Below, in pieces: positions 1,663 to 1,767 of a stretch of 64,000 nt of DNA. Made by a program: the position numbers and the translations under genes. A model generated the notes under the pieces. That model was not told the DNA's origin. It made no database searches and worked only from the letters and a program-made list of their open reading frames with translations. This stretch comes from an uncultured bacterium. Its GTDB lineage: Bacteria > Patescibacteriota > Minisyncoccia > Phycocordibacterales > PALSA-1337. Positions within the stretch are counted from its first letter, which is position 1, and the number at the start of each line of letters is the position of its first letter. The stretch spans positions 65,078 through 129,077 of the forward strand of contig CAIMDG010000002.1 in the NCBI GenBank assembly GCA_903839725.1, read 5' to 3'.

Positions 1663-1767
1663 GATGCAAATACGCAAATGCATGCGAATAACGCGAATAC
1701 ACCGCACCTAATTCTATGTGCTCGTGAGCCTATTCGCGTTATTCGCATGCATTTGCGTATTTGCATC
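1663..1767. repeat. Perfect 37-bp inverted repeat with 31-bp spacer (P-family copy 1), in the LOG/tgt divergent intergenic region
   Basis: Left arm 'GATGCAAATACGCAAATGCATGCGAATAACGCGAATA' is the exact reverse complement of the right arm. Internal ATTCGC/ATTTGC sub-repeats. Related copies at 37179-37216 and 37548-37642. Confidence 0.8.

Follow-up and report, generated by a model that had tools for sequence, protein, structure and literature searches.

What kind of sequence is the long inverted repeat that separates the LOG and tgt genes of an uncultured bacterium of the Patescibacteriota, and what does the recurrence of its arm elsewhere in the same stretch of DNA mean? The stretch, hereafter the window, comprises 64,000 nucleotides (nt) of contig CAIMDG010000002.1 (GenBank assembly GCA_903839725.1, positions 65,078 to 129,077 of the forward strand), and the organism is close to Taylorbacteria. 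The original prediction considered these palindromes to be either the operator of a dimeric DNA-binding protein or an element resembling repetitive extragenic palindromic (REP) sequences, repeatedly placed at gene starts. Here, we have compared them with the corresponding sites of related genomes and with similar arms in genomic and metagenomic datasets. None of the palindromes serves LOG, tgt, ligA or gatC as an operator; they are probably gene-less copies, similar to miniature inverted-repeat transposable elements (MITEs), of a short DNA element interspersed in genomes across the Candidate Phyla Radiation (CPR).

Three sites in the window carry the repeat unit, which we call the P arm. Site A is located between LOG (916-1611, minus strand) and tgt (1807-3042, plus strand) and consists of a left arm at 1663-1699 (minus strand), a non-repeated spacer of 31 nt at 1700-1730 that separates the arms, and a right arm at 1731-1767 (plus strand) that is complementary to the left one at 37 of 37 positions, which bears out the exact 37-bp inverted arms described earlier and gives an overall length of 105 bp. 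The proposed composition of the arms from ATTCGC/ATTTGC sub-repeats was also correct. Each arm contains four heptamers of the consensus ATTYGCR, which are direct repeats with start-to-start distances of 9, 10 and 9 nt; in the right arm of site A, ATTCGCG, ATTCGCA, ATTTGCG and ATTTGCA begin at 1732, 1741, 1751 and 1760, and the left arm has its four heptamers on the minus strand and the outer end GATGC. As judged from the less biased partner arms of other genomes, an arm corresponds to two copies of an 18-19-nt unit, ATTYGTAG-ATTNGCAT-NN. At site B, between ligA and gatC, the same arm recurs as a pair, but the predicted perfect palindrome is not present: the left arm (37548-37584, minus strand) is degenerate, being 1 nt shorter with several mismatches, and the pair formed with the right arm (37605-37641, plus strand) matches at 88% over the inner 33 nt. 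The 20-nt center of this site (37585-37604) is itself a small palindrome (ATCGCG..TGCGAC), whose inner stem ATCGCA/TGCGAT is also found in three metagenome copies (loci L049, L051 and L055), and the whole pair sits within a further G+C-rich inverted repeat with halves at 37532-37547 (GGGCAAGAAGGGG) and 37642-37657 (GGCACCCCTTCTTGCC, directly 3′ of the ligA stop codon). Site B spans from that stop codon to just upstream of the promoter-like site of gatC. The single arm expected between gatC and gatA was confirmed at 37179-37215 (plus strand); this solitary arm, site C, occupies the gap between the gatC stop and the gatA start and is antisense to both genes.

Such a recurrence is far beyond chance, as the 37-mer arm with at most three mismatches has four matches in the window versus 0.00 expected in shuffled sequence. 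A looser pattern combined with a profile search of the 64 kb detected five arms at the three sites and no further arm copies beyond them. When folded as single-stranded DNA, site A reaches -51.9 kcal/mol (z -11.9); the value for site B, outer stem included, is -54.8 kcal/mol (z -13.7), whereas a lone arm folds about as well as shuffled sequence (-5.7 kcal/mol, z -0.43) and is unstructured. In an Rfam 15 scan of the window, tRNAs alone reached the gathering score, and the palindrome gave generic sub-threshold matches to miRNA hairpins; neither palindrome (sites A and B) yielded a terminator-like match or a T run in the terminator scan.

The P family is not specific to this genome but is shared across CPR lineages. 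A degenerate arm pattern was scanned against one genome each of 185,579 species and was found at 45 loci, nearly all of which are labeled as CPR/Patescibacteria, including Saccharibacteria, Parcubacteria, Paceibacterota, Yanofsky-, Lipton-, Sungii-, Moran-, Uhr- and Falkowbacteria, and 'Patescibacteria group'; the remaining labels are one unclassified 'bacterium' and seven metagenome-assembled genomes of 'uncultured Gammaproteobacteria', a label taken here as given. A profile built from these matches recovered 75 arms at E < 1e-3, and a metagenome scan for the arm subtype of the window found eight loci. The commonest form in other genomes is that of site A, in which the ATTCGC ends face each other, the ATTTGCAT ends point outward, and 5-30 nt lie in between. 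More than one site per genome is also observed elsewhere, with up to 3-4 sites in 2-6 kb (L016, L031). The heptamers are kept across CPR classes and the nucleotides between them are variable, yet copies within one genome have the same inter-heptamer bases and the same flank. GTAG is conserved in most CPR arms, and the flank reads GCAT/TAT in most lineages, while GCAT/CG is found in the window as well as in the arm subtype closest to it. The paired arms of most other CPR genomes lack complementarity over their full length (e.g., L004 and L034). Small G+C-rich hairpins such as CCCTCTCCTTTATAAGGAGAGGG sometimes adjoin or interrupt the arms (L020 ~2075-2161, L009 ~2530-2560, L051 3535-3593), and the UvrD reading frame of L020 runs through both the hairpin and the arm. 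The pattern was also matched in three viral contigs (L046-L048), two of them nearly identical (e.g., L047 1530-1620); however, these long tandem (ATTYGCANN)n arrays with a period of 9 nt, read by eye as low-complexity (A-N-x)n coding sequence at the N-terminus of a phage open reading frame (ORF), are probably convergent rather than homologous to the P arm. Full-text literature searches returned no account of such a repeat.

The placement of the arms relative to genes shows no preference for gene starts. Among the 75 arms from other genomes, the outer ends face 26 gene ends and 22 gene starts, mostly at a distance of 10 nt or less, and the TAA stop codon of a convergent gene often overlaps the GCAT/TA junction. 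Hence, the expectation that arms always lie at the 5′ ends of genes failed, and the elements take up the intergenic spacers, which are very short in these genomes. Copies inside coding sequences, which had been named in advance as speaking against an operator, do occur: nine arms fall within naive ORF calls, and seven of these were confirmed inside conserved protein genes, with Pfam domains on either side of the arm or around it (polA, uvrD, metG, parB, recJ, fpg and murD). The in-gene copy is usually a single arm of 36-39 nt, that is, 12-13 codons; it lies in antisense orientation in PolA, UvrD, MetRS, ParB, RecJ and Fpg, where it reads as ..AN..M.ANDAN.., and in sense orientation in MurD. 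RNA genes are affected as well. In a Yanofskybacterium and a Saccharibacterium, a 23S rRNA insertion has an arm at its end, shortly before the exon with the sarcin-ricin loop; in these CPR loci (L001 1074-7090, L041 4567-4855) a multi-kilobase insertion splits the 23S rRNA gene just before that loop, with the P arm ~30 nt ahead of the 3′ exon and a reverse arm beyond the 23S 3′ end. By eye, the flanking sequence there resembles that of a group I intron at its 3′ end.

A clue to the origin of the arms comes from a small protein gene. In all six CPR loci examined (6/6), a gene of the GxxExxY family lies exactly between two outward-pointing arm arrays. Three of these loci were reached via the arms (L031 6404-6840, L016 978-1467, L053 700-1261). 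The other three served as a reverse test, in which homologues from other CPR lineages were chosen by protein search and their flanks were then read: L072 from Doudnabacteria, between the genes for ArgRS and IleRS; L073 from Staskawiczbacteria, between PGK and DHH; and L074 from Parcubacteria CG23, between DprA and TopA, whose arms have a weak profile score (E 0.06 upstream) and whose downstream array was read by eye. Diverging brackets of this kind were seen solely around GxxExxY genes in the sample, and other genes are flanked solely by converging arms of neighboring elements, such as gatC in the window and the 23S fragment in L041. The assignment to the family is based on TIGR04256 (84.5 and 65.3 bits vs. 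a cut-off of 35) as well as PF13366. The protein has ~130 amino acids (aa), and the CPR homologues, all of which are accompanied by ATTYGCR, are ~61% identical to one another. The residues D...ExK are invariant in 32 homologues; an AlphaFold model (predicted local distance difference test score 84.8) matches solely PD-(D/E)XK nucleases, and weakly so (Cas4, lambda exonuclease, AddB, tRNA-splicing endonuclease and Hjc), and no sequence-related solved structure was found. A 2012 survey of the PD-(D/E)XK superfamily listed PF13366 as 'unknown' with multiple transfers, and our full-text literature searches found no account of the function of GxxExxY/PF13366. Most of the homologues are located on contigs of 0.5-3 kb, as would be expected of assemblies broken at repeats. 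No relatives of GxxExxY were detected in the viral contigs or phage records searched.

Five homologues from outside the CPR (28-36% identity, on plasmids or chromids) were also compared. In Bacteroides finegoldii, where the gene lies between those for RadA and an FAD protein, and in Bernardetia, where it lies between Ade and ManC, three copies of CTCTGTG are found with the same inverted layout on either side of the ORF (period 9). In Gemmatirosa, whose neighboring genes are unannotated, a palindrome of three ATCCGCG copies with a period of 9 begins 20 nt past the stop codon. In Treponema saccharophilum (neighbors hypothetical protein and Fic), a 16-nt inverted repeat (..GGATTCG / CGAATCC..) surrounds the ORF, which could be due to chance, and in Persicobacter (neighbors unannotated) AATCC arrays have the same orientation on both sides. 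The change of the heptamer with the protein clade, small as the sample is, provides the best indirect evidence here that GxxExxY may read the arrays.

A second line of evidence comes from the orthologous sites of relatives with 80-93% nt identity. In L065/L066, which are from the same sample, and in L054 (~90% nt identity for L065, ~88% for L054 and 96% in GatA to the window), site A is occupied by an unrelated palindrome, CTTCTGAGAATGATAA..., and site B by the same unrelated family, whereas the P arm of site C in L054 and L066 is identical to that of the window at 37 of 37 positions. In L063/L067, probably one population (~80% nt identity, 88% in GatA), site A contains a third palindrome family, TTTTCTGNAAAAGTTTGGAAAC..., which is also found at site B, and site C is armless, with stop and start nearly abutting (TAATATG). 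In another genome (P0002/P0123; 90% in Tgt and 85% in GatA), the ligA/gatC spacer is 154 nt, the LOG/tgt spacer 111 nt (vs. 212-243 nt), and the gatC/gatA spacer 15 nt, which therefore contains no arm. In L068 (80% in GatA), no long palindrome was found in the ligA/gatC spacer, and a degenerate GTAG-type arm was recognized by eye at site C. At sites A and B, both palindrome arms change together between relatives (e.g., L063 vs. L065). The promoter hexamers beside the palindromes are conserved throughout the relatives, as are the start codons, the G+C-rich outer stem of site B, the stretch from TATAAT to ATG of LOG, and the promoter-like site of tgt. Judging from these alignments, two of the three sites, A and B, turn over between close relatives, and site C appears to be either older or constrained. 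Elsewhere in the window, other long intergenic palindromes are found at 8592-8711, 48046-48201, 53523-53646, 16581-16717 and 35579-35706; three of them make up another family (..ACTCATTTTTCGTACAAGTTT..), a relative of the palindromes present at sites A and B in L063/L067. Outer inverted repeats (8550-8754, 48024-48214) enclose some of these long palindromes, a situation also seen at site B.

The promoter-like sites next to the palindromes are all outside the arms, and site A lies between those of LOG and tgt. A promoter scan found one for LOG at 1618-1645 (minus strand, TTTAAA-16-TATAAT), 6 nt upstream of the ATG at 1611, and one for gatC at 37509-37537 (minus strand, TTGCCC-17-TACAAT), 7 nt upstream of the ATG at 37501; that of tgt at 1772-1800 (plus strand, TTGCTT-17-TATTCT), 6 nt before the ATG at 1807, was recognized by eye and is below the scan threshold. 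The -35 hexamer TTGCCC of gatC is part of the outer stem of site B, as the reverse complement of the left half. Because the -10-like hexamers (TATAAT, TATTCT and TACAAT) are located only 6-7 nt before the ATG and a Shine-Dalgarno sequence is absent from all three genes, the mRNAs of LOG, tgt and gatC are suggested to be leaderless in this organism. The possibility that the arm is a promoter cassette was also considered, given that a start codon follows ATTTGCA after 7-11 nt in many CPR loci and that the transfer-messenger RNA gene and the 23S fragment also follow arms; as a general explanation it was ruled out by the equally many arms at gene ends, the lack of a convincing -10 at the right distance, and the separation of arms and promoter-like sites in the window. 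Sigma-54 and Bacteroidetes-type (TAnnTTTG) promoters do not fit in spacing or bases and are missing from the window variant, and none of the sites for CtsR, MraZ, PurR/LacI, ArgR, dif/Xer, parS or Spo0A appears to fit the direct 9-nt phasing.

Taken together, we consider that sites A and B, each with two arrays and a short spacer, would be ORF-less miniature derivatives of the GxxExxY cassette and that the solitary arm of site C would be a half-element. The features expected of a MITE are seen in the form of a non-coding element of 105 bp with terminal inverted repeats, a pair geometry that is the same in most of the 45 loci, dispersed copies (five arms at three sites in 64 kb vs. 0 expected), and sites that are filled, empty or replaced between relatives (A, B and C). 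The nuclease may bind the phased heptamers at both ends and cut nearby, so that the segment would be moved or copied; ORF-less pairs could be mobilized in trans or be remnants left after loss of the ORF. Such elements would lodge in short intergenic spacers and in the loops of existing hairpins, and copies within proteins may be tolerated because the 9-nt period equals three codons. A broader proposal, which we regard as possible but somewhat doubtful, is that the GxxExxY proteins (PF13366/TIGR04256) are the enzymes of an unrecognized class of small mobile cassettes and that the window palindromes are its miniatures. The ends of this putative class would be inverted arrays of three to four heptamers phased by 9 bp, with a heptamer that would co-vary with the clade of the protein (ATTYGCR for CPR, CTCTGTG for Bacteroidota and ATCCGCG for Gemmatimonadota), and the cassette would spawn miniature palindromes and in-frame insertions of 12-13 codons throughout CPR genomes.

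Several observations weigh against the interpretation of the palindromes as MITE-like derivatives of the cassette. A tblastn search found no GxxExxY gene in the 64-kb window or in the examined loci of the same or related genomes, so that what links the window genome to GxxExxY is the shared arms together with L053, where the gene is accompanied by the arm subtype of the window. DNA binding, cleavage and mobility of GxxExxY are putative, and the comparison outside the CPR comprises five loci with clean bracketing of the ORF in two (Bacteroides and Bernardetia). The TA beside most CPR arms, a possible target-site duplication, is self-complementary and cannot be distinguished from an extension of the inverted repeat, and the lineage of the window has CG in the flank. 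Furthermore, the filled and empty gatC/gatA junctions (window vs. L067) differ without a clear target-site duplication. Site C raises an additional difficulty, as its arm is identical at 37 of 37 positions in a genome with ~88% nt identity while adjacent bases differ at 4 of ~28, and a degenerate arm also occupies this junction in a relative with 80% GatA identity; such conservation is more suggestive of constraint or gene conversion than of junk. Finally, unrelated palindrome families occupy exactly sites A and B in relatives, and the site may thus require or attract a palindrome for another reason; the hairpin loop or the divergent promoter gap may itself do so.

Alternatively, the arrays could be binding sites of a conserved CPR DNA-binding protein with a host function, such as a global regulator, a nucleoid organizer or a centromere-like factor. 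The binder could even be GxxExxY itself, with autoregulatory arrays around its own gene and sites that are gained and lost rapidly. Conservation of the heptamers across CPR classes with varying intervening nucleotides, the iteron-like phasing of 9-10 bp, the persistence of the site C arm among relatives, and the lineage-specific spacer bases common within a genome, as if co-evolving with one protein, are all consistent with this idea. On the other hand, position and orientation relative to genes are inconsistent (22 starts vs. 26 ends), in-frame copies are present in seven proteins, unrelated palindromes are found at two of the three window sites in close relatives with unchanged promoters, and inverted arrays that flank GxxExxY among different housekeeping neighbors in each lineage look like the ends of an element and not like an operator, so that we consider a host protein to be a rather unlikely answer. 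The more specific version, in which a dimeric repressor or activator controls LOG/tgt and ligA/gatCA through these palindromes, was the main idea of the original prediction and was drawn from the dyad symmetry and the promoter-proximal gaps in this window; with the orthologous sites replaced, copies in coding sequence and arms equally at gene ends and starts, it is refuted as far as these data go and retains almost no probability.

It is also very unlikely that the palindromes act as RNA, i.e., as terminating or insulating hairpins or as stems for RNase III processing or stabilization, whose sequence would be replaceable as long as the hairpin stays. This would agree with the high stability of the hairpins, with the position of site B directly after the ligA stop codon as an extension of a conserved G+C stem, with the presence of some long palindrome at sites A and B of relatives whose two arms change together (L063 vs. 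L065), and with the arm and reverse arm that flank the last 23S fragment in L001 and L041 like a processing stem. However, site A is probably not transcribed because it lies between divergent promoter-like sites 6 nt from the start codons, a U tract and a terminator-like match are absent, most other CPR pairs are not complementary along their length (L004, L034), solitary arms are unstructured, and no Rfam family matches. Another candidate is provided by the window itself, in which a RAYT (REP-associated tyrosine transposase)-like gene is located at 43976-44539 (minus strand), and the palindromes might be REPIN-type REP doublets moved by its product. The protein has a Pfam Y1_Tnp domain (32.9 bits vs. 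a cut-off of 23), and its best NCBIfam match is 'REP-associated tyrosine transposase', yet with a score of 38 the latter falls short of its cut-off of 80. It is a single-copy gene with conserved synteny in relatives (L066 and L067), and two inverted units with a short spacer, as well as the GTAG in most CPR arms, would fit such a system. Nevertheless, the gene carries a different 17-nt palindrome, ACAAGGTCTACCCTTGT, of which there are five copies, all within 43900-44653 and nowhere else in the window, four flanking the gene and the fifth interrupting it in frame; moreover, the P arm itself forms no hairpin and no Y1 gene was found near the arms in other arm-bearing loci, which makes mobilization by this transposase highly improbable. 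In L066, the repeat of the RAYT-like gene is different (GTCGAGGTCTCCCCTCGAC) and is likewise present inside the gene. A MITE-like element, possibly served by GxxExxY, is the interpretation we retain.

A few further features of the window were noted. A 267-aa ORF at 3110-3913 (within 3030-3978) fills the gap between tgt and an FAD oxidoreductase gene and is absent there in L063, L064 and L065; in one other relative, a 240-aa gene occupies this gap, and the segment is variable. An exact 34-nt direct repeat, TATGGCCGCAAGTGAGGACTCATGACAAAGCGTG, is present at 34463-34496 and 34545-34578, 82 nt apart, beside the genes for tRNA-Asp and tRNA-Met. ARAGORN also predicted a tRNA-Ser with anticodon ACT (57518-57605) and a tRNA-Ile with anticodon TAT (62495-62568), both unusual in bacteria; a normal tRNA-Ser(GCT) at 58225-58314 neighbors the former.

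These observations have several consequences. A false lead is removed, as the palindromes do not define a regulon operator for tgt, LOG, ligA and gatCA. GxxExxY, a widespread family of unknown function, is tied to a defined DNA partner in the form of inverted heptamer arrays phased by 9 bp, and its function is thereby open to direct binding and cleavage assays. A CPR-wide repeat within and between essential genes (polA, uvrD, metG, parB and the 23S insertion) would affect assembly, gene calling and protein alignments. In addition, a compact tool for targeting DNA could result if short phased words prove to program the sequence specificity of the nuclease.

How does the element compare with known systems? 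Some can be set aside by their architecture. Arrays of the tandem interspaced guide RNA (TIGR), or Tas-associated, type consist of 5-15 tandem units of 36 nt with two alternating 8-12-nt repeats and 9-nt variable spacers, next to a tas gene with a Nop domain (PMC12045711). The P element, with four 7-nt repeats that are 2-3 nt apart and occur singly or inverted without a tandem array, is not of this type, nor is it a CRISPR (clustered regularly interspaced short palindromic repeats) array. DNA uptake sequences (DUS/USS) occur at a density of about one short word per kb, and five arms in 64 kb are far too few for that. Iteron and centromere arrays, such as the heptamer boxes of P1 parS and the heptads of omega proteins, share the phased short heptamers in direct and inverted sets, but they are single plasmid or phage loci for partition or replication, whereas P copies are dispersed, present in coding sequence and turning over. 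The free-standing homing endonuclease genes of phages (Seg/Mob) resemble the cassette in that a small nuclease gene sits between housekeeping genes at a place that varies by lineage, although the nuclease family differs; to our knowledge, Seg/Mob genes neither have inverted heptamer arrays nor leave miniature ORF-less copies.

The suggestion of a REP-like element holds if it is understood broadly, as a family of palindromic repeats interspersed in genomes, and not as a classical REP, since the arm forms no hairpin and the repeat of the RAYT-like gene is different. Similarities to REP/REPIN-RAYT systems include inverted doublets with a short spacer, lineage-specific homogenization, and a long-lived tie to a single repeat-flanked small gene; they differ in that the internal repeats of the P unit are direct and form no hairpin, that copies occur inside genes, and that the P-flanked gene encodes a PD-(D/E)XK protein and not a Y1 (HUH) transposase, the RAYT-like gene of the window having another repeat. 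The Rickettsia palindromic elements (RPE) similarly have copies in intergenic DNA as well as within genes, where they lie in frame in conserved protein-coding genes or are part of RNA genes. Their sequence is unrelated to P, and we know of no protein partner for RPE, whereas a candidate partner is present here. A close parallel is provided by the Correia/NEMIS elements of Neisseria, which are MITEs. Like these, P elements are short (~100 bp) and non-coding with long terminal inverted repeats and several copies per genome, lie tight against gene starts and ends, can form long hairpins, are present or absent between relatives, and have TA beside the ends of most CPR copies. In contrast to Correia/NEMIS, the P ends are arrays of heptamers phased by 9 nt, the candidate autonomous form encodes a ~130-aa protein with a PD-(D/E)XK fold and no known transposase, the sequence spans whole CPR classes and not one genus, and target duplication is not evident. 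On balance, the element behaves like a MITE of the Correia/NEMIS kind that also has RPE-like in-frame copies.

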